Shown: piece after piece, positions 584 to 13,292 of the stretch
Layout of the letters: each line of letters begins with the position of its first letter
Position numbering within the stretch: position 1 is the first letter of the stretch
Sequence record: NC_052662.1
DNA: 64,000 nt
Direction: 5' to 3' (one strand)
Source of the DNA: Escherichia phage Mt1B1_P17
The notes under the pieces: model-generated
Told to the model about the DNA's origin: nothing
Seen by the model: the letters and a program-made list of their open reading frames with translations, nothing else
Databases searched by the model: none
Made by a program: the position numbers and the translations under genes

Positions 584-1200
584 TACGCAGTAACAAGAAA
601 TAACCATCACCGATGGTTATGATTGTTGGGGTGTAGTTGGCTTATTATTAGCTCGCTATGTGTCCGGCATAGCGTGCTAATGATGATCCTGGGAATGATT
701 CGTTTTGTAATGATTTCATTCAGTCACTATTATGGCAATAGTTATTATTTTAATGGTTTCGTTTGTTATTGTTCGTTAGTTGGTTGTTTTGTCGTGTTAT
801 CGTTATCTTGCTTAGTATTCATCATGGTTTGATTGTTTCTTGTTATCAATCATCTTGCTATTATTCCTTTTATTATGATTAGTTTGCTTATTGTTTTAGG
901 TTGTTGGTTAGTTAGTTGTTGCGAACTGTTATCAACATTATAGTTATGCGCTTATATTGCATATATAATCATGTATAGATGATAATGGTTATCATTGCAC
1001 TAGAAAGGAGGTAAAAGGGTGTTTTTGATGGTTTGTTGTTGGTTGTTGATCGATTTTAACCGCTATAAATGGCTCTCTAACAGCCTGTTACCCTGGGAGG
1101 TATGGTTATTCGTTTAATGGTTGATTAGCTCGATACCGCGATTTATTCAATTTTGTTCTGTGTCGGTTTTTCATAGGCGAAAGCTATCAACATTGTTCGG

Positions 1201-1228
1201 GCAAAAAGAAAGGGCGCTTGGTGCGCCC
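1201..1228 (-). terminator. intrinsic terminator hairpin GGGCGC-TTGGT-GCGCCC (copy 1 of 3)
   Basis: Stem-loop with T-rich flanks just downstream of the stop of CDS 1245..1664; identical hairpin at 1776..1794 and 7207..7225. Confidence 0.5.
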
Positions 1229-1244
1229 CTTGTTTTGTTGTCAA

Positions 1245-1664
1245 TTATAACGCTTCATAGATTGAGTAGATCCGGTTTGCCAGGTCATTACGAAAGCGGA
1301 ATTTTTCATCACGTTTGATCATCAGATCCTTAAAACCGCATTCTTTCAGTGCTTCATTAACTTTATGGCGGCAAACGTTCATATTATCCTGCGCGTCACC
1401 AATAAACTTATTGCTGTGATGCATTGCTTTGATCTCTTCCTCTAATACCAGGGCAACTACACGGATCGGATCAAGCTGATATGCGGTAACATCCATGCGG
1501 CATTGTAAACGGCTTTTAACATCGTTTACCGGATATACTGCAACCTCTTCCCCGTCAACGTTCACGATAACCAATTTACCATCGATTTCGAAGCCTTTGG
1601 CGGCGCTACCGTGACAAAAAGCGTTATCGAAGGAGTAAGCTGGATTATTTGATTTAATGTTCAT
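1245..1664 (-). CDS. hypothetical early protein (139 aa)
   Basis: ORF with own TTGACA-N17-TATATT promoter upstream (about 1720..1750). Confidence 0.5.
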   Translation of the reverse strand: MNIKSNNPAYSFDNAFCHGSAAKGFEIDGKLVIVNVDGEEVAVYPVNDVKSRLQCRMDVTAYQLDPIRVVALVLEEEIKAMHHSNKFIGDAQDNMNVCRHKVNEALKECGFKDLMIKRDEKFRFRNDLANRIYSIYEAL

Positions 1665-1775
1665 GTTTTTATCCTTTGTTTCGTTTCGTTGTTTGCTGCC
1701 AGTGAGTTAAATATAATATAACGCCGATCCCCTGTCAATAGGGGATAGCGCATTATTTACATTTCTTTACGTTAA

Positions 1776-1794
1776 AGGGCGCTTGGTGCGCCCT
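1776..1794 (-). terminator. terminator hairpin copy 2 (AGGGCGCTTGGTGCGCCCT)
   Basis: Same hairpin as 1212..1228; lies between stop of 1804..2172 and the promoter of the next gene. Confidence 0.45.
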
Positions 1795-1803
1795 TGTATA
1801 ATC

Positions 1804-2172
1804 TTACTTTGTGCTGTTGTAAACGTTATCGCGTTCAACCATCACGGCAAGGCGGATCAGTTGATCAGTTGTATCGCGTAAACTGTCGGGCCATGTTTTA
1901 CTGTTCCAGTTATCCAGGTTTGACTGTATATAGGTTTCAATGGCTTGATCCATATTATCAAACAAGTTTTCCTCCAGGCTCTCGGCTGTTTCACACTGGA
2001 AAGCATTAGCGACACTATTAATCAATAAGCAAGCCAGTAAATCAGCATTACGCCAATTTTTACGGATAGTTTCATCTGTCAAATAACCAACGAGATTAAC
2101 CTTTGCGCCAGTGGTTGACGTTGCGATCACTTCTTGTGCTTTTTCAAGTGCTTTAATTACTGATTTGCTCAT
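1804..2172 (-). CDS. hypothetical early protein (122 aa)
   Basis: ORF; RBS AGAGGAAAAG; TTGCTT-N17-TATAGT promoter upstream. Confidence 0.5.
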   Translation of the reverse strand: MSKSVIKALEKAQEVIATSTTGAKVNLVGYLTDETIRKNWRNADLLACLLINSVANAFQCETAESLEENLFDNMDQAIETYIQSNLDNWNSKTWPDSLRDTTDQLIRLAVMVERDNVYNSTK

Positions 2173-2250
2173 CTTCTTTTCCTCTTTGTGGGCTTGCTGT
2201 ATTGCTCGCCCTACGCAATAACTATAAGTTAACAGGAGCTAGAAAGCAAG

Positions 2251-2484
2251 TTATTTTTTATAAAATTTTTCTGCTGTGATATTCTTCCCAGTAGGCTTAA
2301 CCACTTGCAAGATCTTATCATGTGCCGAACGTCCAAAAGAGTAAGATCCGTACACGGTAAACCAATAATCCCCGTTCGGTTGAACGGTTACGGCGGCGTA
2401 CGGTGTACCTCTTTCATTATCCCCGATAAAGTGAGAAACATTACCGTTAACATTTGGTTTAGTGCTTTTAATTTGTTCGATCAT
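2251..2484 (-). CDS. hypothetical early protein (77 aa)
   Basis: ORF; RBS AGGAG; promoter/hairpin cassette 2503..2562 upstream. Confidence 0.5.
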   Translation of the reverse strand: MIEQIKSTKPNVNGNVSHFIGDNERGTPYAAVTVQPNGDYWFTVYGSYSFGRSAHDKILQVVKPTGKNITAEKFYKK

Positions 2485-2502
2485 GATATGACTCCTAAAT
2501 CA

Positions 2503-2562
2503 GGCGGGAAACATTCCCGCCCTACGTGATAAATGATAATGTAAGCGTGATCCGGTGTCAAT
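2503..2562 (-). promoter_or_regulatory. early promoter cassette: TTGACA-N17-TATCAT, then TAGGGCGGG and 5' stem-loop GGCGGGAA-ACA-TTCCCGCC
   Basis: Read on minus strand; -35 at 2557..2562, -10 at 2533..2538, hairpin 2503..2521. Confidence 0.6.
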
Positions 2563-2867
2563 AGGTAGGATTGTAAAGATTTGATAGTTTATCTCTTTGA
2601 TGTTTTGTTGTTTGATAGATGTTAGCTATCAATATATAGCGGGGTCGTCCGGTGATTATCTTCCCCTGCTTCCAGGTGCCGCCCGTTCAATAAGTATAAC
2701 AAAAAACAGGACAAAAACAAGCCCTGTTTATTTATCTTAAAACCAGTTGCCAACCGTTTCCAATAGGTCACTGACTACCAGGACAACATTGATCAGCACA
2801 TGTTCAACCATGAAGGGGATAAGCGCCAGCGTTGCTACTACGATCCCCATTGTGATGATTACCTTTC

Positions 2868-3158
2868 TCATTGTTGGCGGTTTACGTAAGCTTTACCGTT
2901 TACGGTCATCGGTATGGCCTCAAGGTCTGGATCTTCCTTAAGGTCGCGTGCAAGCTCACCGCAGCGGATACCCTCGAATCCGTGGTATTCTGTCGTGCCG
3001 TCCTGGAAAGTTTTAGCGGCAAGGCATAGGCGATAATTAACGCCGATCCGGTTCACTGCGTTAATATCGGTTAACGTGATGGATTCTGGCAACTCTTTCG
3101 CCATTACAGGCGCGTTAATACCAACAACCAGGGCAACTACTGCGATCATCTTTTTCAT
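2868..3158 (-). CDS. secreted/periplasmic small protein (N-terminal signal peptide MKKMIAVVALVVGINAPVMA)
   Basis: ORF with hydrophobic signal-like N-terminus; 5' hairpin GGGGCGGTAACGCCCC and RBS upstream. Confidence 0.5.
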   Translation of the reverse strand: MKKMIAVVALVVGINAPVMAKELPESITLTDINAVNRIGVNYRLCLAAKTFQDGTTEYHGFEGIRCGELARDLKEDPDLEAIPMTVNGKAYVNRQQ

Positions 3159-3213
3159 GCTTTCTAGCCTCTTCCTATTGCGTTTAATGGGGCGTTACCG
3201 CCCCGCTTATGGT

Positions 3214-3450
3214 TTATTGATTGATGTTATAATGAAAATTATTTTCTTCAATAGCTTTTAAAATAAAAGCCGTGATCGCTTTCGTGTCTACTTGTTCGAA
3301 CGTATCGGAATAGCACCAATAATGATCATCCCCTACTTTCGGCGGGTAAACCTGGACAAGGAGATCGCCACCTGGTTGATCTATAAGCTCAACATGCAAG
3401 CCGGATGATTCAGCGGTTTTAACGGCGTTTAATACTGTTGCAATACTCAT
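3214..3450 (-). CDS. hypothetical early protein (78 aa)
   Basis: ORF; RBS; 5' hairpin GGGGCGGCAACGCCCC upstream. Confidence 0.45.
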   Translation of the reverse strand: MSIATVLNAVKTAESSGLHVELIDQPGGDLLVQVYPPKVGDDHYWCYSDTFEQVDTKAITAFILKAIEENNFHYNINQ

Positions 3451-3494
3451 AATCTTTCCCTTTCTGATGTGGGGCGTTGCCGCCCCTTTGTTGA

Positions 3495-3794
3495 TTAGAT
3501 CGCTGTTTCCAGTAGTTCGGCTAACGTCTTACCGCCTGATAGTTGGTCTAACGTTTGCTCTTCTGGCAAGAAATTAGCTGATATTAAACCGACTTGATTC
3601 CCTTTGTGCCAATTAGCTTGACGGATGATTCCATCCTTTAAGGATTTTACCGCCATTGTGCAACCGTCGCCAAATGATTCATTTTTATGATCCATCACTT
3701 CGTAAGCGCCCAGTTTGCTGCTGTTAGGCACCATTAACGCGAATACATCACCAACAACCAGTTTTTCTACGGTAACAATAGCGATAGTTTCCAT
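3495..3794 (-). CDS. hypothetical early protein (99 aa)
   Basis: ORF; RBS GAGGAAAG; cassette 3813..3869 upstream. Confidence 0.5.
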   Translation of the reverse strand: METIAIVTVEKLVVGDVFALMVPNSSKLGAYEVMDHKNESFGDGCTMAVKSLKDGIIRQANWHKGNQVGLISANFLPEEQTLDQLSGGKTLAELLETAI

Positions 3795-3812
3795 TTTACT
3801 TTCCTCATTATT

Positions 3813-3869
3813 GGCGGCACCATTGCCGCCCTACGTGGTAAATATTAGCACACTGGCGATCTGTGTCAA
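3813..3869 (-). promoter_or_regulatory. early promoter cassette: TTGACA-N16-TAATAT plus 5' stem-loop GGCGGCAATGGTGCCGCC
   Basis: -35 at 3864..3869, -10 at 3842..3847, hairpin 3813..3830 (minus-strand reading). Confidence 0.6.
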
Positions 3870-3875
3870 TACTTT

Positions 3876-4262
3876 TTATTCAATATAAATCAAATTATCT
3901 TCACCAATGTAAGCCGACACGTTCGGCATAAACTTAGCTGCATTGGTTAGGCGGTTCGCCGTGTTAGTGGTGTATATCTCAGGGCGATCCCAAAAGCCTA
4001 CGCCGTGACCGTTACGGGTAAAATGTAAATCATTCCCGATCTGGTTGGCTGTTGCGCCGTCGCTCATTGCCTCAGAGATAGCGGCAAGATTAGCATTAAT
4101 AAAGGCTGTTACATCCTGGGCGATCCGTTCGTCCGCGCTAGGAGAAAAATCATAATCGTCTAAGTTATCAATAAAATTACCTTCATGATCCCTTGCTGAT
4201 TCAGCAAAAATAAAGGCTTCTTTATAGCCGTTGATGATTTCAATAATGATTTCTGTTTTCAT
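3876..4262 (-). CDS. hypothetical early protein (128 aa)
   Basis: ORF; start overlaps stop of upstream gene. Confidence 0.5.
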   Translation of the reverse strand: MKTEIIIEIINGYKEAFIFAESARDHEGNFIDNLDDYDFSPSADERIAQDVTAFINANLAAISEAMSDGATANQIGNDLHFTRNGHGVGFWDRPEIYTTNTANRLTNAAKFMPNVSAYIGEDNLIYIE

Positions 4263-4483
4263 GCTGTACGCTCGACAATAATAATAGTTTGCGGGATCTC
4301 GTTTTCTACTACTAACAAGGCTTTTTTCTGTGTGATAGATATTTTAACACGTTGTAAAGTAGCGGTAAAATCTTTCATTTCATTATGCGCGGACTTCGTG
4401 CAATGCCAGATCTCAGGCTTACCAACTTGTAAGCCGCGTAAAAATTCCGTTTTGCCTGTTTTGTTCGTGATCATTTGTTTCAC
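4259..4483 (-). CDS. hypothetical early protein (74 aa)
   Basis: ORF in operon-like arrangement. Confidence 0.4.
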   Translation of the reverse strand: MKQMITNKTGKTEFLRGLQVGKPEIWHCTKSAHNEMKDFTATLQRVKISITQKKALLVVENEIPQTIIIVERTA

Positions 4484-4484
4484 C

Positions 4485-4589
4485 TTAACCGATACCGTGG
4501 GAAGATAGGATCATATTAGCCATAGTTGCAACTACTCCAACCGATAACGCTAGGCCAACCACTGCAACCGTGAAAATTTTCTCTAACAT
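4485..4589 (-). CDS. small hydrophobic (membrane) protein, about 35 aa
   Basis: Start moved to internal Met (MLEKIF...) downstream of the 5' hairpin; the track ORF 4485..4688 translates the hairpin. Confidence 0.35.
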   Translation of the reverse strand: MLEKIFTVAVVGLALSVGVVATMANMILSSHGIG

Positions 4590-4672
4590 GATTCTACCCT
4601 CATTAATGGGCGTTGCACCATTGCCCCGCCCTACGTAATACACTTTACTAGATAACAAATTATTGTCAAGCT

Positions 4673-4810
4673 TTATTTTACTTCCCAAACGGAAAATTCG
4701 CTGCCTGTTGGGATCATTTTTTTAATCTTGTTTGCTGCCGCTACCAGGTCAACGGCTTGTACTGTAATAATATAACCAATTGTCGAGGCTGTTGCGTTGA
4801 AAGTTTTCAT
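4673..4810 (-). CDS. small protein, about 45 aa (below track cut-off)
   Basis: ATG at 4810 with RBS AAAGGGCAA and 5' hairpin GGCGGGATTAATCCCGCC upstream. Confidence 0.4.
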   Translation of the reverse strand: MKTFNATASTIGYIITVQAVDLVAAANKIKKMIPTGSEFSVWEVK

Positions 4811-4854
4811 TATATTGCCCTTTAATACAGGCGGGATTAATCCCGCCTTGTTGA

Positions 4855-5025
4855 TTACTCTTCATTGTCGCCGTTATAGTATTCAATGCCGTTTTCATCG
4901 GTTACGGTGATGTTAACGCCACCGATAGCAACACGATCACGGGCAAACGTCATAGCTTCATTTAAATCTTCAGACCAAAAAATATTGTGACCTTTGCGCG
5001 ATACATAAAACATAGTCGGGATCAT
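4855..5025 (-). CDS. hypothetical early protein, about 56 aa
   Basis: Track ORF N-terminus (YHIGRRNGPP) is translated hairpin; start set to internal Met. Confidence 0.4.
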   Translation of the reverse strand: MIPTMFYVSRKGHNIFWSEDLNEAMTFARDRVAIGGVNITVTDENGIEYYNGDNEE

Positions 5026-5110
5026 GATTTGTTTCTCTTCTGTTATGAGCGGTGGACCATTCCGCCGCCCTATGTGGTAAACTTTACTACGTTGTTTGCG
5101 TGCTGTCAAA

Positions 5111-5395
5111 TTATTTTTTAATGTTTTGCCCTACAAAATTGATCACTTCCTTAAGCTGTCTCTCTGTCATGATCGTACCTGGTAACTCTTCTTTAATTTC
5201 TTCCGGTAAATAGATATTACCGCGCCAGGTTAACAAACAACCGTTTTGATCTTCGCAGATAGAATAAGAAAACATCCACTCGCAATCATTTTCAAGCTCC
5301 CAAAAACACAAAAAGTCTTCTTTCCCTAAGTTTTCAACGGTTAAACATAATCCGCGACGTGCTGCATAATTAGTTAGGCTTTTTGTAATTTTCAT
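5111..5395 (-). CDS. hypothetical early protein (94 aa)
   Basis: ORF; RBS; cassette 5418..5472 upstream. Confidence 0.5.
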   Translation of the reverse strand: MKITKSLTNYAARRGLCLTVENLGKEDFLCFWELENDCEWMFSYSICEDQNGCLLTWRGNIYLPEEIKEELPGTIMTERQLKEVINFVGQNIKK

Positions 5396-5417
5396 GATTT
5401 TTCTCTCTTCTTGTGAG

Positions 5418-5472
5418 CGGCACCATTGCCGCCCTACAAGATATATATTATCAGACTAGGCGGACTTGTCAA
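5418..5472 (-). promoter_or_regulatory. early promoter cassette: TTGACA-N16-TAATAT plus 5' stem-loop GCGGCAATGGTGCCGC
   Basis: -35 at 5467..5472, -10 at 5445..5450, hairpin 5418..5433. Confidence 0.6.
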
Positions 5473-5473
5473 A

Positions 5474-5584
5474 CTATTTTTTCTTTTTCTTTGCTTCCAA
5501 CCGTCTAAGGTTACGGCTTGACTTATTGCGCAAGGCGCTTAGATCGTCGTACCCTTTCCATGCTTGCATATCTTTCGGATTCAT
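5474..5584 (-). CDS. small basic protein, about 36 aa (MNPKDMQAWKG...KKKKK)
   Basis: Internal Met with strong RBS AAGGGGGAT; weak call. Confidence 0.3.
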   Translation of the reverse strand: MNPKDMQAWKGYDDLSALRNKSSRNLRRLEAKKKKK

Positions 5585-5594
5585 GTTATCCCCC

Positions 5595-5873
5595 TTAACG
5601 ATTATAAACATTATGGATGGCTTCAAAGGCAAGATGACCATAAGCCGCCAAATCGGGATTGATCCAAGCGTTATCCAACATCGTTTCAAGGACTGTGGAA
5701 TCATCGTATAAAGCATCATAGAAATCTGCACGGATGATCGTTTCAATGTCGTCCGGTGTTAGTTTGTCGTTCAACTTGCACACTGTTTCAACGTCAACAC
5801 CAATTTTCCAATTTTGTAAATTAGTGGTTAACATTGTTTTCATTTCTTCGGTTGTTAATTTAACGATGGTCAT
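5595..5873 (-). CDS. hypothetical early protein (92 aa)
   Basis: ORF; RBS AGAAGAGAG; TTGACA promoter and 5' hairpin GGGGCGACAAGCGCCCC upstream. Confidence 0.5.
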   Translation of the reverse strand: MTIVKLTTEEMKTMLTTNLQNWKIGVDVETVCKLNDKLTPDDIETIIRADFYDALYDDSTVLETMLDNAWINPDLAAYGHLAFEAIHNVYNR

Positions 5874-5953
5874 GATTTTTTCTCTCTTCTGTTAGGCGGG
5901 GCGCTTGTCGCCCCTATGTGATACATCTTATCAGGTTGATTCAGCTTGTCAAA

Positions 5954-6115
5954 CTATTTGTTAGCCGGATTATATGCCAGGACCGCGCCACTTGCTTTCA
6001 CGCTTTCCGCTTCATAGTTGCGCAGATCGTTTTCTGTAAGATTGAGCGCGATCACTTCCTCGATCTCAACGCCAGCGGCAAGGGCGATCTCTTTGATAAT
6101 ATCTGTTGTTTTCAT
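5954..6115 (-). CDS. hypothetical small protein, about 53 aa
   Basis: Internal Met (MKTTDIIKEI) with RBS AAGGTG. Confidence 0.4.
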   Translation of the reverse strand: MKTTDIIKEIALAAGVEIEEVIALNLTENDLRNYEAESVKASGAVLAYNPANK

Positions 6116-6127
6116 GGTGTGCACCTT

Positions 6128-6247
6128 ATAAGATGATTGATAAGATAGTGACAACGAAAGCGATTATACTGATGGCAAATGTCATCTTTTTACCTTCGGA
6201 TACTGCCGGATTCTCTACCGTGTATTCTACTGTGTACTTGCTCATCG
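6128..6247 (-). CDS. small membrane protein, about 39 aa (C-terminal hydrophobic helix)
   Basis: ATG at 6247 with RBS; TTGCAA-N18-TATTTA promoter and 5' hairpin upstream. Confidence 0.4.
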
Positions 6248-6343
6248 TGTAATCCTCTCGTTTGCTTTGGGAACTATTCCCGCCGCCCTATGAATTAAAT
6301 ATACACTATCTCAAAATGATTGCAAGCCTTTTTCTAAATTATT

Positions 6344-6628
6344 TTATGCAGTAAACAAACCATCATTTACAACGGCGGCGATGATCTCCCGTGCCATTGA
6401 TTCAGGGAAAGGGGCGCTATAGTCCTGGCTTGTCTCATCGGTATCGGTGATCCAATGATAAGCTAACGAGTAAAAGCCTTTACTAACTGTTTTCAGTGAG
6501 ATGATGATCACTCGGTCAAGCTTATTGGTGAATGTTGCCGTTAATGTGTTACCCTCCTGCGTCATGTTGGACAAGTAAGCGAGATCATTAATCAGGGAAA
6601 ACATTAGCACGGTGTTAGCTTTACTCAT
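6344..6628 (-). CDS. hypothetical early protein, about 94 aa
   Basis: Start moved to internal Met (MSKANTV) after the hairpin; RBS GAGGATG. Confidence 0.5.
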   Translation of the reverse strand: MSKANTVLMFSLINDLAYLSNMTQEGNTLTATFTNKLDRVIIISLKTVSKGFYSLAYHWITDTDETSQDYSAPFPESMAREIIAAVVNDGLFTA

Positions 6629-6699
6629 GATTGCATCCTCAAAGGGGCGCGGCACCATTGCCGCCCTACACGATAACTATAACACAATGTAAAACAGGA

Positions 6700-6906
6700 T
6701 CAACCTTTATTTTTCCACGGTGTCAGCTTGTTAATCATTGGTGATAAATAGCGTTTACCAACGTAAAACAGTACGCCAACTGATGCAACGGCGGCGACCT
6801 CATGCAAGGAGGAAGGACGCGCGGTGTCATAGTAGGTACCAATAATAGCAATAGCGGCTACTGCGGCAATGTCTGTAATAATTTTTTCTTGTTTTGTTGT
6901 GATCAT
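6700..6906 (-). CDS. small membrane protein (68 aa)
   Basis: Hydrophobic stretches; RBS; 5' hairpin GGCGGGGAATAGTTCCCCACC upstream. Confidence 0.45.
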   Translation of the reverse strand: MITTKQEKIITDIAAVAAIAIIGTYYDTARPSSLHEVAAVASVGVLFYVGKRYLSPMINKLTPWKNKG

Positions 6907-6991
6907 AATATTTACCTTTTTGTATGGTGGGGAACTATTCCCCGCCTGATGTAATACAGTTTAACAGGTCCGGTTATGGTGTCAACCACTT

Positions 6992-7177
6992 TTAAAGATA
7001 TTTTATGCTAATGACGTTTTCAGGTTTTACCTTGTTATGATGTGCATCAACATAGATCAAACCATCGTCAGAAAAGCCCAGGATCACACCCTGCGCGATA
7101 AAACCATACGCATCACGGTAACGCACGGCTATTTTTAATGTTGCGTTATAGGCTGTTTTAAGCTCGCTTAAAGTCAT
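6992..7177 (-). CDS. hypothetical early protein (61 aa)
   Basis: ORF; RBS GAGGATAAACA. Confidence 0.45.
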   Translation of the reverse strand: MTLSELKTAYNATLKIAVRYRDAYGFIAQGVILGFSDDGLIYVDAHHNKVKPENVISIKYL

Positions 7178-7206
7178 CTTTGTTTATCCTCTACATATAA
7201 AAAGAA

Positions 7207-7225
7207 AGGGCGCTTGGTGCGCCCT
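7207..7225 (-). terminator. terminator hairpin copy 3 (AGGGCGCTTGGTGCGCCCT)
   Basis: Identical to 1776..1794; T-tract on minus strand. Confidence 0.45.
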
Positions 7226-7233
7226 TGTTATGT

Positions 7234-7380
7234 TAATCCTCTAAATCCATCCAATTATATTTGTCACTCTTCCCGCGCTTTGTTTTATTGCGCTTGTCGC
7301 CTTTGCGGATCACTTCCTCGTTCCAGGCCTTGCGGATCTTGGAAGATTGAATTTTTTCTGCGCGATTAGATGTATTCATT
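7234..7380 (-). CDS. small basic protein, about 48 aa (K/R-rich)
   Basis: ATG at 7380; RBS GAGGAAAC; TTGACA-N17-TAAATT promoter and 5' hairpin upstream. Confidence 0.4.
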
Positions 7381-7458
7381 TTGTTTCCTCTTCATATGAG
7401 CGGCACCATTGCCGCTATATTGTTAATTTAAACTGTTTTGTAAAATTGTCAAGGTTTA

Positions 7459-7812
7459 TCATTCATAAGAGCAAGCAAGGATCACGCCTGCAATATAAAG
7501 CCAATAATTTTCCCTTTCTCGTTGGATTTTATCATCGCTGCTATTCTCTTTAATGTATCCCCAGGATGTTAACAAACGATCAATTTCCCAATATTCGAAA
7601 GCTATATTAATATCTGATGGCAAGCCTTGTAACCATGATGCAAGTGCTTTAACAATACTATAATTAAAACGTGATTGATTATCAGGGTACCAGTACTCGG
7701 AATTAAAACGGCGCATCAATTCCGCGATCTTCTCTTTTTCGGTTGTAATACCATAATCATTAAAATCGATAGCGGCAAGGATGTACTCTTTAATTGCATT
7801 TTGTGCTTTCAT
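7459..7812 (-). CDS. hypothetical early protein (117 aa)
   Basis: ORF; RBS; cassette 7831..7887 upstream. Confidence 0.5.
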   Translation of the reverse strand: MKAQNAIKEYILAAIDFNDYGITTEKEKIAELMRRFNSEYWYPDNQSRFNYSIVKALASWLQGLPSDINIAFEYWEIDRLLTSWGYIKENSSDDKIQRERENYWLYIAGVILACSYE

Positions 7813-7830
7813 GGTCTTTCTCTCTTTTTA

Positions 7831-7887
7831 GCGGGAACTATTCCCGCCCTACGTGTAACAGTTTACTGAAAATTAAATCCGTGTCAA
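7831..7887 (-). promoter_or_regulatory. early promoter cassette: TTGACA-N16-TAAACT plus 5' stem-loop GCGGGAATAGTTCCCGC
   Basis: -35 at 7882..7887, -10 at 7860..7865, hairpin 7831..7847. Confidence 0.6.
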
Positions 7888-7890
7888 GCT

Positions 7891-8112
7891 TTATTTTGTT
7901 ACTACCATTTGGTACCCTGTTTCAATGTTAGTAAATACTGTTATCCCGTCCTGGCGTTCACTCATTAGCATACAAGGCGCTAACATCCTTTCTACTGCCT
8001 TGCACTCATTGTAAACGGCGGTTATGTCTCCTGCGGCCTTGTCTTCTGTGGTGAATGTATCGTTTATGTAAACTTGACCAGCGACAACGGCGACAATAGC
8101 GAAAGTGATCAT
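7891..8112 (-). CDS. hypothetical protein (73 aa), hydrophobic N-terminus
   Basis: ORF with RBS. Confidence 0.4.
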   Translation of the reverse strand: MITFAIVAVVAGQVYINDTFTTEDKAAGDITAVYNECKAVERMLAPCMLMSERQDGITVFTNIETGYQMVVTK

Positions 8113-8185
8113 GATGTCTTTCTCTTTATGTGTTTCTATTAGTTGATATTACAGCAATTCGCAGATTAGTTTTTAGCAATTCGTG

Positions 8186-8404
8186 CTATTTACTCATAAC
8201 AGTATCGAAAACAAATTTTTCTTTGTTGTCAAAGCTCACGTATCCGATTCGACCACGCAAGCCGCAAGTAGTGCCGTATTCGTAACCGTCAAGACCTTTA
8301 ACCTTCCAATCCACGCCCATTAAAACCGCATTATATTTCTGACCAACTACAAACGCGCCACCAGTTGATTCAATGCAAACAACTTTAATTTTACGGATTG
8401 CCAT
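8186..8404 (-). CDS. hypothetical early protein (72 aa)
   Basis: ORF; 5' hairpin TATAGCGCC-TTACAAT-GGGCGCTATA upstream. Confidence 0.45.
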   Translation of the reverse strand: MAIRKIKVVCIESTGGAFVVGQKYNAVLMGVDWKVKGLDGYEYGTTCGLRGRIGYVSFDNKEKFVFDTVMSK

Positions 8405-8485
8405 TTTCTTTCTCTCTTTCTGGTGATTGGTTTCTCTTCTCTATAGCGCCCATTGTAAGGCGCTATAACGAAAAGTCAACGATTA

Positions 8486-8650
8486 TTTTTTAAGGCTTAA
8501 AGTACCTAACTTGTCAGCATGACGTAGACCAGGGAAGATCCATTTTCCTGATTCATCTTTTACAGGGGCTTTAAACGTAGCGCCCAGGTTGGCGGCGTTA
8601 ACTTTACGGGCAACGTTGCGAGCGGCTTCACGGGTAGCGAAAGTGATCAT
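8486..8650 (-). CDS. small protein, about 54 aa (below track cut-off)
   Basis: ATG at 8650; RBS GAAGAGGAAAAC; TTGCAA-N16-TAAACT promoter and 5' hairpin upstream. Confidence 0.4.
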
Positions 8651-8741
8651 GGTGTTTTCCTCTTCTCTTTGTTAGGCGGTGGACCATTCCGCCGCCTTGA
8701 TGTAATACAGTTTACTTTATTTTTGCAGTATTGCAAGCGTT

Positions 8742-8954
8742 TTATGAAATAATCGTCAAAGTAAAATTGTAATCACCTGATTGGTACAATACTTTATCAC
8801 CGAAAGTTCCAACACGTTTAACATTGCAATATATACCCATAACACTTTTTACATCTTTGATATTCTTCACGCCTGTAATATCTTTATTAAAATGATCGTG
8901 ATCAGAAAATAAAACTTGACTTGCATTTTTTAACAGTGTACGGATATTAGCCAT
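8742..8954 (-). CDS. hypothetical early protein (70 aa)
   Basis: ORF; TTGACA-N16-TAAACT promoter and 5' hairpin upstream. Confidence 0.45.
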   Translation of the reverse strand: MANIRTLLKNASQVLFSDHDHFNKDITGVKNIKDVKSVMGIYCNVKRVGTFGDKVLYQSGDYNFTLTIIS

Positions 8955-9044
8955 CGTGATAATCTCTCTTCTGTTGTGAGCGGCACTATTGCCGCCCTAC
9001 GTAATACAGTTTACTCTTTTTCTTTCCCGTGTCAACAATCTTTT

Positions 9045-9272
9045 TCAGATTAATTCATCCAGGCATAACAGGCGATCAACGTTGAGATCTGTTAGGCTGA
9101 TGGTTGGCACCTGGTAGGATTCGATGTACTCGACGCTTGCATATTCCCCAAAATTAGCAACAGCCCACTTATTCAAGATCTCACATACATCATTAATCTT
9201 TTTGTTTGTTACAACTGCTACAACCTGGGAATAGCCAACGGTGCCGGATACGCGAACAATATTGATAGCCAT
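9045..9272 (-). CDS. hypothetical early protein (75 aa)
   Basis: ORF; promoter/hairpin cassette upstream. Confidence 0.45.
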   Translation of the reverse strand: MAINIVRVSGTVGYSQVVAVVTNKKINDVCEILNKWAVANFGEYASVEYIESYQVPTISLTDLNVDRLLCLDELI

Positions 9273-9363
9273 AATCTTTAATCTCTCTGTTGTGAGCGGG
9301 AAACCATTTCCCGCCTTATGTGATACATCTTACACTAATTTTAAACGTTGTCAACTGTTTTTA

Positions 9364-9603
9364 TTACATTCCAACCATCGCGGCGCGGATCGCTGTAGTG
9401 CTATACTTGAAACCGTCTGGAGTTTTATCTTGTCCAGTTTGTTCCAGGAATAACATCATATCACGGGCAGCATCATTACGATTAGTATTAGCGGCGATAA
9501 ATTCTTTCGCCAACCGATATAATGATTCGTCATTATTAATCCAAAGGCTTACATTCCAGTGAGTTTTATTTTTGTGACCTAAGAACATTTTTGATTTAGC
9601 CAT
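9364..9603 (-). CDS. hypothetical early protein (79 aa)
   Basis: ORF; promoter/hairpin cassette upstream. Confidence 0.45.
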   Translation of the reverse strand: MAKSKMFLGHKNKTHWNVSLWINNDESLYRLAKEFIAANTNRNDAARDMMLFLEQTGQDKTPDGFKYSTTAIRAAMVGM

Positions 9604-9692
9604 GATATTAATCTCTTTTTCAGTGAGGCGGGAAGTATTCCCGCTCTCTATGTAATACAGTTTACTCTTTTTATTCGTGCTGTCAATGCTTT

Positions 9693-10058
9693 TTATAAAT
9701 CTTTTTTACGTTTAACATCACTCGCATGACTGTATACAGTGATCCCATTGTCACGGCAAAAACGGGAAAGATACGCGCCGCGTGAAAACTCTTTACCTTC
9801 CATATTAATAACCTTGCTAAATTCTTCCAGGGCGACGGTATCAAAATGATCACCATAGCCATATTGAAACGGAACGTTAACCACCTCGATCAGTTTACCG
9901 CCGATCTCAACGTCAACCATTAAAGAAAAATATGTGTTACCGTAGGACTGTTGAAACCAGCGACGGGCGCTAATGTGCACCGCTTCAATGCTGGATAATT
10001 CAATTTTAGCCGTGTTAGCCAGGGTAGCATAAGCGGAAACATTGATATTAATAGCCAT
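9693..10058 (-). CDS. hypothetical early protein (121 aa)
   Basis: ORF; TTGACA-N17-CATAAT promoter and 5' hairpin upstream. Confidence 0.5.
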   Translation of the reverse strand: MAININVSAYATLANTAKIELSSIEAVHISARRWFQQSYGNTYFSLMVDVEIGGKLIEVVNVPFQYGYGDHFDTVALEEFSKVINMEGKEFSRGAYLSRFCRDNGITVYSHASDVKRKKDL

Positions 10059-10155
10059 GATGATAATCTCTCTTTTTGGTTAGTGGGAAGTATTCCCGAT
10101 AAAAGTTATTATGCTTATACTATCACTCATTGTCAATAGTATAAGACTAAAACTT

Positions 10156-10335
10156 TTAACGATAATCGTTATAGGCTTTATTGACCTGGCGAATGTAACA
10201 TTCGAAAGCAAGATCAATGTATTCGTATTCACGCACATAATCACCATAGGTCACTACATACATTTTTAAAGTTTCCTCATAAGCCAGGAGGATCGAATCT
10301 AAACCTATAATCTCAGTTTTTGCAATGATAGCCAT
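10156..10335 (-). CDS. small protein, about 59 aa (below track cut-off)
   Basis: ATG at 10335; RBS; TTGACA-N16-TATAGT promoter and hairpin GGCGGCAATGGTGCCGCC upstream. Confidence 0.4.
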   Translation of the reverse strand: MAIIAKTEIIGLDSILLAYEETLKMYVVTYGDYVREYEYIDLAFECYIRQVNKAYNDYR

Positions 10336-10418
10336 GATGTTAACCTTTTATTGTTGGCGGCACCATTGCCGCCCTACGTGATAAACTATACCAGAAGTTT
10401 AAACAGTGTCAACCGTTT

Positions 10419-10781
10419 TTATTCGTAAATTTTACCGCTTTCGGCCCATACCATAACGCGGCGCATACTATCCCAAGTGTTTTGATCCAGGTTTAAGCCG
10501 TGCAACTCTTCGGTACTTCCCAGACCAGGTACCGCTTTGTTGTAAGTCGCATATAAGCGCCCTTGATACTCATACACCAGAGTAAGATCCGTTTGAATCA
10601 TCTTTTTAAGCATAGCATTAAGCATCATATTAGCGGCATGTTGATCACGTTTTAGCGGTAACATATCAATAAGGGCGCGATAAGCTGAAACATGGATATC
10701 AACCGTTTCACGTGGTAAATTTTTCATATCATCGCGGAAAGATACCAGATTAAACATGATAGTATTGATTTGCTTGCTCAT
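10419..10781 (-). CDS. hypothetical early protein (120 aa)
   Basis: ORF; cassette 10803..10863 upstream. Confidence 0.5.
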   Translation of the reverse strand: MSKQINTIMFNLVSFRDDMKNLPRETVDIHVSAYRALIDMLPLKRDQHAANMMLNAMLKKMIQTDLTLVYEYQGRLYATYNKAVPGLGSTEELHGLNLDQNTWDSMRRVMVWAESGKIYE

Positions 10782-10802
10782 TGTGTTACCCTTTTTTGTT
10801 TT

Positions 10803-10863
10803 GGCGGGGAAGTATTCCGCCGCCCTATGTGATACATCTTATCAGATTAAAAAACGTTGTCAA
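10803..10863 (-). promoter_or_regulatory. early promoter cassette: TTGACA-N16-TAAGAT plus 5' stem-loop
   Basis: -35 at 10858..10863, -10 at 10836..10841, hairpin 10803..10824. Confidence 0.6.
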
Positions 10864-10871
10864 GAATATTT

Positions 10872-10967
10872 TTAGAAAATAATAGCCGCTACTACAACCC
10901 AAAATGGAACGGCTAGAATGATAGCGTTAATCGTTCCAACCGTCAAGCTATTTTCTTTATTAATCAT
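10872..10967 (-). CDS. very small membrane protein, about 31 aa
   Basis: ATG at 10967; RBS AAGAGGCTT; TTGACA-N17-TAATAT promoter and hairpin upstream; hydrophobic C-terminal half. Confidence 0.35.
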   Translation of the reverse strand: MINKENSLTVGTINAIILAVPFWVVVAAIIF

Positions 10968-11049
10968 TGTAAGCCTCTTGCATAATTTCACTATGAGCGG
11001 CACCATTGCCGCCCTACGTGGTAAATATTATGCCAGTGGCGGCGATATG

Positions 11050-11616
11050 TCAAAGACTATTTTCAAAGTTTTCTAGTGCTATCCTTTTTTCTTCCTCTGT
11101 CGGCTGATAATCAGGAAAAGCATCAACACACAACAACGGCGGGATCTCTTCGTACTCTTCCTCTTCCGTTGTCTCCTCGTCTTCCTCCTGGGCTATGGCT
11201 GCAATTTTGGCTAATTTTCTTTCGGCTTGAATCAATTTACCATCAAGTACGTTTTTTGCCATGTTGTAAGCGGTCCAGGTGATGCGCTTACTTTCCAGAG
11301 CTTCATCAAGCGCCGCTATCTTGCTGGGGTATTCATCCAGGACACGAAAAGCCGGATCAACTTTGTACAAAGGATTATCTTTCGCGCCGTCGCTCGCATC
11401 TTCTGCACTGGATAAATCAGCGTTACCATTTGCCAGCCAGCCAGGGCGCACATAACGCGCTTTTACGTTGCCGTTACTACGTGCTAATCTGTTACCTATT
11501 TGCTCACCGCTATATCCCGTGGATTCATCGATAAGATGATCGGGAATGATGCGCGGATCATCTGCTTCATGTTTTACCCAAGACTGGATCACATATTCGC
11601 GGCCCATATTAACCAC
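11050..11616 (-). CDS. hypothetical acidic protein (188 aa; E/D-rich C-terminus)
   Basis: ORF; RBS AAAGGTGG; start overlaps stop of upstream gene. Confidence 0.5.
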   Translation of the reverse strand: MVNMGREYVIQSWVKHEADDPRIIPDHLIDESTGYSGEQIGNRLARSNGNVKARYVRPGWLANGNADLSSAEDASDGAKDNPLYKVDPAFRVLDEYPSKIAALDEALESKRITWTAYNMAKNVLDGKLIQAERKLAKIAAIAQEEDEETTEEEEYEEIPPLLCVDAFPDYQPTEEEKRIALENFENSL

Positions 11617-11866
11617 CTTTTTTCAACAATTGGCATACTTTAAAAAGACTTGCTGAATCCTTGCAAGGGTAGAAAGATGTACGATAGTCACGTACGCCAA
11701 CCTTGCGGATCTCGATGTTCTCGCATGTTGTTTGATCAAAGATATTTATTTCATCACGCCCCCTTATATAAACATAGTGGGGATGTATTAACGCATATTT
11801 TGCTAATCTGTAAAAAGCGTTATCTTTGAACGCGATCACGTGACCTTTTAATTTGATGTAAAACAT
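11609..11866 (-). CDS. hypothetical early protein (85 aa)
   Basis: ORF; RBS AAGGTGG; TTGACA-N16-TAATAT promoter and 5' hairpin upstream. Confidence 0.45.
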   Translation of the reverse strand: MFYIKLKGHVIAFKDNAFYRLAKYALIHPHYVYIRGRDEINIFDQTTCENIEIRKVGVRDYRTSFYPCKDSASLFKVCQLLKKGG

Positions 11867-11942
11867 TCTACCACCTTACAAATAGCGGGAACTATTCCCG
11901 CTTTATGTAACATATTAACAAATTATTCGTTAATGTCAAGCC

Positions 11943-12215
11943 TTAAAGCAAAAACGCTACATCTTGCGCTTTTAGTGTAGTATCAACCATTTTCGGGCTT
12001 TTATAATCAACAAAGCGCGCGGTTTTTTCAATAGCGAAACCGAGATAATCTTGCTTGTTGAAATTACATTCTTTCTTAAATGTTTCCCGTGCAATGGCAA
12101 TCGCTGCGTCCAGGGATAAACGCCCGTCAATATTGATATTAGCGAAAGATCCGCCACCGCTCATAGGTTTACCAGTGGTGCCAGCTACGATCATTGTTGC
12201 GCTATATGATGCCAT
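11943..12215 (-). CDS. hypothetical early protein, about 90 aa
   Basis: Track ORF N-terminus (YHIGRRNGPA) is translated hairpin; start set to internal Met MASYSAT. Confidence 0.45.
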   Translation of the reverse strand: MASYSATMIVAGTTGKPMSGGGSFANINIDGRLSLDAAIAIARETFKKECNFNKQDYLGFAIEKTARFVDYKSPKMVDTTLKAQDVAFLL

Positions 12216-12304
12216 GATGATAATCTCTCTGTTGTGAGCGGCTGGACCATTCCGCCGCCCTATGTGATACATCTTATCAGGTTGTTGTTTGTTGTCAATA
12301 CTTT

Positions 12305-12502
12305 TTATTCTATCCCTGCAATTTGATTAACGCGCTTGCATTTTGTAGCGTGCTGGTCTTCTGTAATGACTCCCATTTCTAACAGGGAATCAATGAAAGA
12401 TAAAACCGTTTCATGATCATCCTGGGGATGACTGAACTCAGTAAAACCGTTTACTATTACGTTGATTTGTCCAGCTTTCGCCACAATATGCAATGTTGCC
12501 AT
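12305..12502 (-). CDS. hypothetical early protein (65 aa)
   Basis: ORF; RBS; TTGACG-N17-TAGTAT promoter about 150 nt upstream. Confidence 0.4.
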   Translation of the reverse strand: MATLHIVAKAGQINVIVNGFTEFSHPQDDHETVLSFIDSLLEMGVITEDQHATKCKRVNQIAGIE

Positions 12503-12775
12503 GATCTTAACTCCAGGTGATGAATGATGTTTTTTGTTGGTGGACGGTGGATTATGGAGATCCTCACCTTTGCCCGTCCTGCATTGCGCCCTCCTGTTGT
12601 TTATTGTCGTTGTGCCGCGCCCCCCTCGACAAGATGAATACTACGCTACCAGGTGAGGAACGTCAACCACTTTTTCAATCTTTTTTATTTTCTTTTTGCT
12701 TGCTATGTATAAAGGAAAGGGCTATTATCTTTCTACCGCGCCAACCAGGGCGCACAACAAAGAAAGGGCGACACC

Positions 12776-13042
12776 ATGACAAATACTACATTACACCTTA
12801 TGCACTCATTGGGCTGGCAAGGCGGAACGGTGCACCAGGTAGCAAGCGCAACGGGCTTAAAGGTTGAAACAGTTCTCAACCTGGGCGATCATAAGGTGGA
12901 AGAGATAGATCATTTTGATACGTTCGCAAATGGTTATCTATGGGCTTGCAGTGGCGGCGGGGAAAGCAAGATACCACCAGGGGCGCGGGGCGATATGTAT
13001 TTTTGGTTAGGTGTCCTATCCTGGCAAGAAAACAAAAAATAA
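12776..13042 (+). CDS. hypothetical protein (88 aa), plus strand inside a minus-strand block
   Basis: ORF with weak RBS; GC-rich surroundings; uncertain. Confidence 0.3.
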   Translation: MTNTTLHLMHSLGWQGGTVHQVASATGLKVETVLNLGDHKVEEIDHFDTFANGYLWACSGGGESKIPPGARGDMYFWLGVLSWQENKK

Positions 13043-13044
13043 TC

Positions 13045-13073
13045 TTGACAAGCCCAGGGATCGGGCTTATACT
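13045..13073 (+). promoter_or_regulatory. near-consensus sigma70 promoter TTGACA-N17-TATACT with no downstream ORF
   Basis: -35 at 13045..13050, -10 at 13068..13073; followed by about 200 nt of GC-rich untranslated sequence. Confidence 0.5.
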
Positions 13074-13292
13074 GTTTTACATACAGAAGAGGAAGCGCCA
13101 CCCCACGGCGTAAAGGCGGGGCTAACATACCAGGGGGCACTGGTTGGAAGGTTGATCGCCGGTAGGCTGGGCGCTATATATTTGTAAAGAAATGTAAAGA
13201 TAAAATAATCACTTGCTTTCCTGGCTGGATCTGTTATTCTTATTACATGGCGAGGGGACACGGGAGCGCGAGACAAACACCGCCCCTGCGCG

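Follow-up and report, generated by a model that had tools for sequence, protein, structure and literature searches.

Between positions 1700 and 12700 of the window (the whole stretch of 64,000 nucleotides (nt) of Escherichia phage Mt1B1_P17, record NC_052662.1, that was analysed) lies a dense array of very small minus-strand genes, many of which are preceded by one and the same unit, a promoter followed by a GC-rich hairpin, which we call the cassette. In a Megablast search this region matched 275 phage records, the top match being Escherichia phage tuntematon (96.8% identity, 98% query coverage), which is classified as Phapecoctavirus, Stephanstirmvirinae; to judge from these matches, the window is a Phapecoctavirus genome, that of a coliphage related to phAPEC8. 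Pieces of the array genes were also found by BLAST in Justusliebigvirus (phi92-like), Vequintavirus (rV5-like) and jumbo Asteriusvirus phages. Between 1245 and 12502 there are 36 minus-strand open reading frames (ORFs); the gene content differs among ten relatives, and in each annotated relative almost all array genes bear the label "hypothetical protein". The larger array proteins had no Pfam match and hit only PHROGs of unknown function, so that the 22 cassettes found within 10 kb of this variable region stand before what are, by these searches, ORFans. Scans of the array region for tandem repeats and tRNAs returned nothing.

The complete module consists, in order, of an A-rich tract, TTGACA, a spacer of 16-17 nt, TAnnnT, the stretch (G)TAT(C/T)AC(A/G)TAGGGCGG, a GC hairpin of 6-10 bp, a CA/AG-rich leader and the ATG. 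A strict pattern derived from it (TTGACA-N15-19-TANNNT-N4-12-TAGGGCGG) had 11 matches in the window, every one of them on the minus strand and within 2517-12298, and none in 100 shuffles. Reading the minus strand from 1500 to 13000 directly, with inspection of the 110 nt upstream of each plausible start codon, gave 22 cassettes spanning 2173-12298 (Table 1), i.e. one for 61% of the 36 array genes. A single plus-strand copy lies far from the array, immediately upstream of a gene of 324 codons that belongs to the TerC family (PF03741, E = 1e-38). The hexamer TTGACA is exact in 18 of the 22 minus-strand copies and in the plus-strand copy, the remaining four having a degenerate -35 (TTGCAA twice, TTGCTT and TTGATC); the -10 boxes are of the TAnnnT type at a spacing of 16-17 nt (the copy before gene 9693-10058 is listed with CATAAT), and the upstream consensus is AAAAA.

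All 23 copies can be aligned from the -35 through the ATG. When the alignment is anchored on the -10, the spacer carries 0.22 bit/nt, the -10 hexamer 0.98, the ten bases that follow it, (G)TAT(C/T)AC(A/G)TA, 0.69, and GGGCGG 1.17; the centre of the hairpin frequently reads AAT(G/A)GT, and sub-families of cassettes have the -10, the discriminator and the leader in common. Since conservation thus extends well past the two hexamers, at 0.69-1.17 bit/nt downstream versus 0.22 in the spacer, the observation of a repeated promoter and hairpin module stands. The original prediction, made from the letters of the sequence, had counted at least 20 copies plus one before terC, which the census bears out, and every hairpin and -10 variant that it quoted was found. 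It had also noted a spurious N-terminus, YHIGRRNGP, which the sequence confirms: an ATG that overlaps the -10 serves as the start of the mechanical ORF 11943-12272, whose translation runs through the hairpin with MYHIGRRNGP. Its spacer length of 16 to 18 nt has to be corrected to 16-17 nt, and its statement that nearly every small gene is preceded by the module was too strong, given a share of 22 out of 36.

Table 1. Cassettes and other promoter, hairpin and terminator-like features of the window. Start codons of minus-strand genes are at the higher coordinate; the numeral between -35 and -10 is the spacer in nt; PeSL, promoter early stem-loop.
Feature	Coordinates	Strand	Downstream gene	Promoter	Box	Hairpin	Remarks
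Cassette	2173-2249	-	1804-2172	TTGCTT (degenerate), TATAGT	GCGTAGGGCG	GGGCGAGCAATACAGCAAGCCC	
Cassette	2485-2561	-	2251-2484	TTGACA-17-TATCAT	CACGTAGGGCGG	GGGCGGGAATGTTTCCCGCC	-15.7 kcal/mol, z = -2.2
Cassette	3795-3869	-	3495-3794	TTGACA-16-TAATAT	CACGTAGGGCGG	GGCGGCAATGGTGCCGCC	
Cassette	4590-4669	-	4485-4589 (34 codons)	TTGACA-16-TAAAGT		GGGCGGGGCAATGGTGCAACGCCC	three orthologue hairpin variants
Cassette	5026-5109	-	4855-5025	TTGACA-17-TAAAGT	CACATAGGGCGG	GGGCGGCGGAATGGTCCACCGCTC	
Cassette	5396-5472	-	5111-5395	TTGACA-16-(TGA)TAATAT	TTGTAGGGCGG	GGCGGCAATGGTGCCGCT	TG-extended -10
Cassette	5874-5952	-	5595-5873	TTGACA-16-(TGA)TAAGAT	CACATAGGGG	GGGGCGACAAGCGCCCC	
Cassette	6246-6325	-	6126-6245	TTGCAA (degenerate), TATATT	TTCATAGGGCGG	GGGAATAGTTCCC	weak hairpin
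Cassette	6629-6703	-	6344-6628	TTGATC (degenerate), TATAGT	GTGTAGGGCGG	GGCGGCAATGGTGCCGC	
Cassette	6907-6985	-	6700-6906	TTGACA-16-TAAACT	ACATCAGGCGG	GGCGGGGAATAGTTCCCCACC	
Cassette	7380-7452	-	7233-7379	TTGACA-16-TAAATT	ATATAGCGG (shortened)	GCGGCAATGGTGCCGC	
Cassette	7813-7887	-	7459-7812	TTGACA-16-TAAACT	CACGTAGGGCGG	GGCGGGAATAGTTCCCGCT	z = -3.2; five hairpin variants
Cassette	8651-8736	-	8483-8650	TTGCAA (degenerate), TAAACT	ACATCAAGGCGG	AGGCGGCGGAATGGTCCACCGCCT	
Cassette	8955-9035	-	8742-8954	TTGACA-16-TAAACT	TACGTAGGGCGG	GGCGGCAATAGTGCCGCT	eight hairpin variants
Cassette	9273-9354	-	9045-9272	TTGACA-16-TAAGAT	CACATAAGGCGG	GGCGGGAAATGGTTTCCCGCT	five hairpin variants
Cassette	9604-9686	-	9364-9603	TTGACA-16-TAAACT		GAGAGCGGGAATACTTCCCGCCTC	gene homologue behind like-built cassette in G17
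Divergent cassette	10059-10136	-	9693-10058	TTGACA-17-CATAAT	no TAGGGCGG box	GGGAATACTTCCC	short hairpin
Cassette	10336-10412	-	10156-10335	TTGACA-16-(TGG)TATAGT	CACGTAGGGCGG	GGCGGCAATGGTGCCGCC	
Cassette	10782-10863	-	10419-10781	TTGACA-16-(TGA)TAAGAT	CACATAGGGCGG	GGCGGCGGAATACTTCCCCGCC	
Cassette	10968-11053	-	10872-10967 (31 codons)	TTGACA-17-TAATAT	CACGTAGGGCGG	GGCGGCAATGGTGCCGCT	
Cassette	11867-11939	-	11609-11866	TTGACA-16-TAATAT	ACATAAAGCGG (shortened)	AGCGGGAATAGTTCCCGCT	PHIRE promoter in phAPEC8 record
Cassette	12216-12298	-	11943-12215	TTGACA-16-(TGA)TAAGAT	CACATAGGGCGG	GGGCGGCGGAATGGTCCAGCCGCTC	-16.7 kcal/mol, z = -3.3
Cassette	35844-35919	+	35920-36894 (TerC family)	TTGACA-16-TAAGAT	CACATGAAGCGG	GCGGGGAATAGTTCCCCGC	z = -4.3
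Promoter/hairpin, other layout	1729-1744	-	1245-1664			CCCCTATTGACAGGGG	palindrome encloses -35; PeSL-typical
Promoter/hairpin, other layout	8445-8464	-	8186-8404	TTGACT-16-TACAAT		AGCGCC..GGCGCT	encloses -10; PeSL-typical
Promoter-less intercistronic GC hairpin	3188-3205	-	2868-3158			GGGGCGGTAACGCCCC	GTAA loop
Promoter-less GC hairpin	3471-3486	-					GCAA loop; like 3188-3205
Promoter-less GC hairpin	4829-4848	-					like 3188-3205
Terminator-like hairpin with T-tail	7206-7226	-					divides array; terminator scan
Terminator-like hairpin with T-tail	2704-2729	-					terminator scan
Terminator-like hairpin with T-tail	1209-1231	-					terminator scan

Hairpin and promoter stand at a nearly constant distance from each other. 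In most copies the stem starts 10 or 11 nt past the last base of the -10, and the same offset predominates in most groups of orthologous cassettes from 11 relatives. E. coli RNA polymerase as a rule initiates 7-8 nt past the -10, on a purine that follows a pyrimidine, and the conserved CAC-(A/G) therefore makes base 8 after the -10 the likely start, with the stem beginning at about +4 of the predicted transcript; the placement of the hairpin at the predicted 5' end of the transcript, which had been proposed from the sequence, is in line with this geometry. With transcription starting at the CAC-R purine, about 0-3 nt would be left unpaired at the 5' end, and in the CACG...CTCAC variants the first two predicted transcript bases can pair as well. 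Fold energies of the minus-strand copies range from -7.8 to -21.2 kcal/mol in 21 of 22 cases, the divergent copy before gene 9693-10058 reaching -5.5. Ten predicted 5' untranslated regions were folded, and each formed one 5'-proximal hairpin (minimum free energy -12.5 to -16.7 kcal/mol; z-scores of -1.5 to -4.3 relative to dinucleotide shuffles). Since in most of these ten the purine-rich Shine-Dalgarno region is unpaired, the hairpin is not one that sequesters the ribosome-binding site (RBS).

The two arms of the hairpin co-vary, while the loops differ from copy to copy (ATGG, TAG, TAC, TGT and ACAAG among others). Promoter and hairpin units were collected from the window and twelve related loci; downstream of the -10 they comprised 126 distinct sequences, with 79 hairpin sequences and, after filtering, 75 distinct hairpins. 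In these 75, the native arm pairs have a mean energy of -13.4 kcal/mol versus -9.6 for randomly re-paired arms (z = -12.9; none of 2000 permutations reached the native value). The 79 hairpin sequences contain 54 G.U pairs versus 13 C.A mismatches, and the sense strand folds better than the antisense strand in 40 hairpins and worse in 14. Among the relatives, a single substitution often gives rise to a G.U pair, the C.A mismatch found in hairpins of the GGCGGCGGAATGGTCCACCGCC type has been repaired in at least three different ways, and the C.A mismatch in the hairpin of cassette 8651-8736 is likewise repaired differently in different relatives. The G.U excess, the greater stability of the sense strand and the mismatch repairs all lean, if weakly, towards an RNA structure on the sense strand; since the copies compared share descent, these counts are to be taken as indicative and not as formal probabilities. 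RNAalifold predicted no pairs on a MAFFT alignment of the 23 cores, because MAFFT sets the 3' arms of stems of unequal length out of register (as it also did in a seed of 12 sequences); for this reason no covariance model was built and arm covariation was measured by the re-pairing test. A search of the whole window against Rfam 15 at gathering thresholds found no family, and at E <= 1 positions 1-14500 gave only two chance-level matches. We also considered a riboswitch of the yybP-ykoY type before terC and rejected it, there being no Rfam match and the leader being that of an ordinary cassette.

Comparison with relatives indicates where the array has been rearranged. BLASTN matches of ten relatives to the window were chained and their ends clustered, and the ends of homology were found to recur at the same coordinates among relatives. 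Fifty-five of the 66 clustered ends fall outside gene interiors, which account for 70% of the length, and 22 of the 66 fall inside cassettes, where 10.5 would be expected relative to the whole region (binomial p = 4e-4). Gene boundaries in general are the exchange points, and the cassettes are one class among them. Several junctions are chimeric. In AV126, SKA64 and PsgM04F, gene 2251-2484 is absent and the promoter half of its cassette is joined to the hairpin half of the next one (2173-2249), the crossover falling within GTAGGGCG; similarly, phiWec190 lacks gene 6700-6906 and has at the junction a hybrid of the promoter of that gene and the hairpin of cassette 6629-6703. Additional genes are found between two copies of the 32-nt core 3814-3845 in DE16, SKA64 and PsgM04F, and between two copies of the core 10819-10849 in ESCO9. 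In P3322, ECO340P2 and DE16 exactly one cassette with its ORF (5598-5954) is absent, leaving a clean junction where the stop codon of one gene adjoins the RBS of the next. The chimeric junctions contain 9-32 nt of common core and show, on the evidence of the aligned genomes, that cassette copies have recombined with each other repeatedly in the past.

Exchange is also seen at a finer scale. Taking as orthologues genes that are 78-100% identical over 60 or more of their first 90 nt, we find two or more hairpin variants in 18 of the 22 orthologue groups, often between unchanged promoter and leader flanks, e.g. before genes 11943-12215, 4855-5025 and 9045-9272; the first of these has seven hairpin variants within identical flanks. 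Upstream of the orthologue of gene 8742-8954, the sole difference between SKA64 and PD06 is an inversion of the central six bases, AATAGT becoming ACTATT (GGCAATAGTGCC vs GGCACTATTGCC). This is a rearrangement of the palindrome at the DNA level that keeps the fold, and it is of the kind expected from template switching within a palindrome. The orthologue of gene 9693-10058, which in the window follows the divergent copy, sits behind a standard cassette in ECO340P2, SKA64 and AV126. Going by these alignments, hairpin, cassette and cassette plus ORF all act as exchangeable modules.

The same architecture is present in other phage lineages. In the 16 kb of rV5 (Vequintavirinae) that were examined, five sigma-70-type promoters have a GC hairpin 8-10 nt after the -10, with hairpin sequences unrelated to those of the window (e.g. 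GGGCAAGACGTTTGCCCC, GGGCCAAAAGGCCC) and without the TAGGGCGG box. G17, a 370-kb jumbo phage of the genus Asteriusvirus (MK327931), carries in a 1.6-kb stretch three tandem cassettes (positions 1070-2290 of our locus L015), built of TTGCAA-17-TATAAT, GTTTTACATC and a hairpin such as GAGAGCGGGAACACTTCCCGC, with 10 nt between -10 and hairpin; two of the three precede homologues of window genes 9364-9603 and 10419-10781. When a G17 cassette was used as query, it was found at 12 places in the G17 genome and at 6-20 in other Asteriusvirus genomes. The G17 copies are near-identical over the whole -35 to -10 interval including the spacer, where the window copies differ. As the position of the hairpin is kept in rV5 and G17 where its sequence is not, these cases are the best available argument that position matters, and they suggest a common pool of early-gene cassettes among coliphages. 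This cross-lineage aspect appears to be undescribed in the literature searched: sigma-70 promoters and terminators are listed in the rV5 paper, but nothing of this kind, and the paper on the jumbo phage CBB describes RpoD-like promoters with UP elements and does not mention hairpins.

Fourteen genes of the array lack the module. Six of them have little or no gap to the upstream gene and look translationally coupled, and four stand behind promoter-less GC hairpins, two with GTAA or GCAA loops. Of the other four, two have promoters in which a hairpin lies over the -35 or the -10, the gene starting at 8112 has a promoter-like site only, with no hairpin, and the one starting at 12502 lies about 135 nt below a promoter at 12666. 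The stronger minus-strand calls of the terminator scan were the three T-tailed hairpins of Table 1, which divide the array, and it also called several weak sites inside genes. The tuntematon genome (MN850618) has another minus-strand array at 137,957-150,306, made up of about 38 small genes whose ORFs overlap or abut; it has no promoter-hairpin cassettes, and a scan of that genome from 60 to 150 kb, the portion outside the window, found no further cassette copy.

Both flanks of the array are poor in ORFs. Downstream, positions 1-1245 form about 1.2 kb without a convincing ORF, A/T-rich and with scattered imperfect repeats, which match a 1.6-kb unannotated gap in tuntematon (4291-5891 of the record); a "non-coding" box is mentioned in the rV5 paper too. 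On the other side, at 13045-13290 on the plus strand, a strong promoter (TTGACA-17-TATACT) has a stem-loop at 13050-13068 within its spacer, which is the classical PeSL layout, and is followed by about 200 nt that are GC-rich and structured-looking, with no obvious ORF and no Rfam match; this region may encode a small RNA. A palindromic motif, TAAATGAGAATGATTATCATTTA, is clustered at 13296-13410, with three copies at 13301-13408 spaced by 29 nt, and occurs also at 48-75, 227-254 and 981-996, i.e. in both ORF-poor flanks; its form GAGAATGATTATCATT, allowing up to 3 mismatches, has 12 occurrences in the window versus 1.4 expected. We take this motif to be closely similar to the Fur box of E. coli (GATAATGATAATCATTATC). 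Finally, records named as Campylobacter phages (19 records), Pseudomonas phage PsgM04F, Acinetobacter phage ABPW7, Klebsiella phage ZCKP1 and Enterococcus phage heks contain sequence 87-97% identical to the array, which may reflect mis-assigned hosts or coliphage contamination in the deposits.

Parts of the cassette have been annotated before. In the phAPEC8 record (JX561091), 20-mers of the type RTAGGGCGGCAATGGTGCCG and variants of it are marked "putative promoter determined with PHIRE", and -35/-10 regions are marked "host dependent promoter determined with MEME". Both sets of features coincide with our cassettes, which the record splits into two promoter classes, labelling the hairpin as a promoter and saying nothing of the hairpin as such, of its constant position or of the part it plays at recombination junctions; the repeat was previously known only through this automated, and misleading, label. 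The hairpin affects gene calling as well, since ORF finders that read through it or use the ATG of its loop mis-call gene starts. The loop AATGG contains one ATG and the -10 TAAGAT followed by G makes another, and gene callers use both; phAPEC8_00259 (6051-6359 of our locus L011), for instance, has its annotated start at the ATG in the loop, and the start backed by an RBS lies 36 nt further downstream. N-termini of array genes are therefore likely to be mis-annotated in many records.

The explanation that we favour, with a probability of roughly 60%, is that the cassette is a portable early-expression unit dependent on host sigma-70, that its 5' hairpin works as RNA and that its copies serve as recombination substrates. 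Each self-contained cassette would be read by the sigma-70 RNA polymerase of the host through the A-rich upstream tract, the near-consensus -35, the often TG-extended -10 and a pyrimidine-purine start (CAC-R), and the GC hairpin would form from 3-4 nt into the transcript, to be followed by the CA/AG-rich unstructured leader with its Shine-Dalgarno sequence. 5'-terminal stem-loops protect E. coli mRNAs from decay that depends on RppH and RNase E. By analogy with these, the hairpin probably stabilises the mRNA: with no more than about 0-3 unpaired nt at the 5' end, it would shield short early mRNAs from 5'-initiated decay, and in read-through transcripts it could also stop 3' exonucleases after the upstream gene. 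Being near-identical over about 60-80 nt and present as 22 direct repeats, the cassettes are moreover substrates for homologous recombination and short-patch gene conversion, which delete, insert or swap single ORFs together with their expression signals, both within this phage group and with other large coliphages.

Several observations weigh against this explanation. The constant distance from -10 to stem could partly reflect the descent of one contiguous block instead of selection, an account against which the rV5 and G17 cases argue, though they are few. The hairpin copies are kin by descent, so that the permutation, G.U and sense/antisense statistics overstate their independence. The conserved stretch (G)TAT(C/T)AC(A/G)TAGGG is not needed for a stabilising hairpin, and the model leaves it unexplained. 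When only non-coding and gene-edge positions are considered, the cassettes are not favoured as match ends (22 of 55, versus 53% of the length), and we have therefore dropped the claim that they are a preferred site of exchange; what survives of the proposal that they mediate gene shuffling is the presence of chimeric cassettes at junctions of gene gain and loss, without preference over other intergenic or gene-edge sites. There are also orthologues that have no cassette, such as those of gene 10872-10967 in PsgM04F, phiWec190, PD06 and ESCO9. In the literature searched we found neither transcript mapping for this phage group nor a functional study of the element, and the motif goes unmentioned there.

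One may also consider that the stem-loop functions as in classical PeSLs, as a terminator or attenuator of upstream transcription, so that each gene is insulated and expressed from its own promoter only. A PeSL stem-loop of phi1/RB49 placed between a promoter and lacZ did cut expression about as much as rrnB T1 (PMC2839356), the cassette hairpins are GC-rich and intergenic, and only three other sites on the strand of the array are terminator-like. Nevertheless, on the minus strand the terminator scan picked out none of the cassette hairpins, and each is followed not by a T-run but by a sequence of the CTCACAACAG type. Furthermore, because the hairpin is downstream of its own predicted start, an efficient terminator would abort the transcript of the cassette before the gene, a difficulty that most PeSL stem-loops avoid by lying within or overlapping the promoter (PMC2839356); we regard a terminator function as unlikely. 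Hardly less doubtful, though it would account for the otherwise unexplained TAGGGCGG box, is that box and hairpin together form the binding or cleavage site of a specific factor, for instance a phage repressor that turns off early promoters or mRNAs, or an endoribonuclease that processes early transcripts, in the manner of T4 RegA/RegB. The block from the -10 through GGGCGG is conserved more than a hairpin needs (up to 1.17 bit/nt), the hairpin centre is often AAT(G/A)GT, and a common operator on 22 promoters would permit a coordinated shut-off; against this, stem and loop sequences vary freely (75 distinct hairpins, one with its central six bases inverted), rV5 and G17 retain the position of the hairpin but not the box, and no nucleic-acid-binding domain was recognised in the array proteins with Pfam or PHROGs.

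In a further reading, that of the phAPEC8 record, the conserved 20-mer is a phage-specific promoter. PHIRE did single out RTAGGGCGGCAATGGTGCCG as a 20-mer repeated about 20-40 nt upstream of many genes, but it detects repeated words only, and this word invariably follows a near-consensus sigma-70 -10 at a distance of 8 nt, has as its chief feature a palindrome with co-varying arms, and is missing from promoters that precede other genes of the same phage. To our knowledge, which here includes the rV5 paper and no search of our own, the group has no known phage RNA polymerase and no known early sigma factor, and we find this reading hard to credit. A likeness of CACATAGGG to the core of the T7 promoter was dismissed as well, since sigma-70 elements take the place of the upstream specificity region and the group is not known to have a phage RNA polymerase. 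It is improbable, too, that the cassettes have no function of their own and stem from one promoter region by recent duplication or by gene conversion, with the palindrome as a passive passenger. Sub-families alike in -10, discriminator and leader, and the evident patchy conversion between copies, are what such a history would produce, whereas the divergence of the -35/-10 spacer to background (0.22 bit/nt) with retention of the downstream block, the co-varying arms with mismatches repaired in several ways, and the unrelated hairpins at the same position in rV5 are not. On these sequence features the terminator, phage-promoter and no-function readings are disfavoured. We attach similarly little weight to a last idea, that the palindrome (outer arms GGCGG...CCGCC, plus the box) is a structure-specific recombination site, folded as a DNA hairpin and used by a phage or host enzyme for integron-like exchange in several lineages. 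Crossovers in the core, hairpin-only swaps between unchanged flanks, the inverted hairpin centre and the homologous ORFs behind equivalent cassettes in a 370-kb jumbo phage are all compatible with it, but ordinary homologous recombination and palindrome template switching explain each of these observations too. Were it true, unrelated large virulent coliphages (Stephanstirmvirinae, Vequintavirinae, Asteriusvirus) would have an exchange system in common.

Arrays of tiny ORFans are the least understood and most variable part of the genomes of large virulent phages, and many anti-defence and host-takeover functions are probably encoded in them. Under the early-expression reading that we favour, the array illustrates how small genes may be expressed and exchanged as plug-in units, each behind a standard set in which a strong promoter of the host type is followed by a hairpin at about +4 and by a ribosome-binding leader without structure; the repetition of this set would permit a single gene to be gained, lost or replaced with its neighbours intact. 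The cassette may also offer phage engineering a compact, ready-made expression part. What appears to be new here is the hairpin at a fixed position after the predicted start, its part in junctions and the occurrence of a PeSL-like element in this phage group.

PeSLs were described in phi1 and RB49 as sigma-70 promoters with adjacent G/C-rich stem-loops that precede ORFans in hyperplastic regions (Arbiol et al. 2010, PMC2839356), where they acted as promoters and terminators and were proposed to support modular shuffling and the formation of mini-circles; the concept was later extended to further T4-like phages, PST/T4 and nt-1/KVP40 (Comeau et al. 2014, PMC4122927). The cassettes resemble them in having a near-consensus sigma-70 promoter, an A/T-rich upstream tract and a G/C-rich stem-loop, in occurring in dozens of copies upstream of small ORFans of a variable region, and in that indels and replacements between close relatives end in copies of the element. 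The PeSL layout proper, with the hairpin over the -35 or the -10, is also found in the window, at promoters 1729-1744 and 8445-8464. In the 22 + 1 cassettes, however, the stem-loop lies past the predicted start, in the transcript of the cassette itself, whereas most PeSL stem-loops are within or overlap the promoter; it has no T-tail, which makes a role as terminator unlikely, and the unit includes the conserved box CAC-R-TAGGGCGG and a conserved leader. The carriers are not T4-like but belong to the Stephanstirmvirinae, with analogues in Vequintavirinae and Asteriusvirus, and BLASTN found no sequence similarity between the cassettes and elements of the RB49 type. The likeness to PeSLs of T4-type phages suggested in the original prediction thus holds for composition, location and association with indels, and fails for the position of the stem-loop and probably for the terminator role. 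The cassettes are probably best seen as a variant of the PeSL idea in which the hairpin is probably not a terminator.

In the placing of its hairpin, the cassette recalls the 5'-terminal stem-loop that reportedly stabilises the ompA mRNA of E. coli from within its 5' untranslated region (Emory, Bouvet and Belasco 1992). There a stable hairpin a few nt from the 5' end is followed by an unstructured leader with the RBS, an arrangement that the cassette would share if its transcript starts where predicted; unlike the ompA element, the cassette is repeated and mobile and not tied to a single gene. As a genetic arrangement, the array recalls the attC arrays of integrons, with single ORFs, imperfect palindromes that have conserved outer arms and variable centres, and gain or loss of one unit at a time. 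The likeness is no more than an analogy. No integrase was identified, every unit has a promoter of its own, and the junctions fit homologous exchange within 9-32 nt. Likewise, the morons of lambdoid phages (Hendrix et al. 2000, as discussed in PMC2839356) are single extra genes with their own promoter, and the precise presence or absence of the block 5598-5954 and the private copy before terC fit that description. Going by the passages on morons in that discussion, these are not thought to move via their regulatory sequences, in most cases have a terminator and frequently point the opposite way; in contrast, the common cassette itself gives the homology for exchange.

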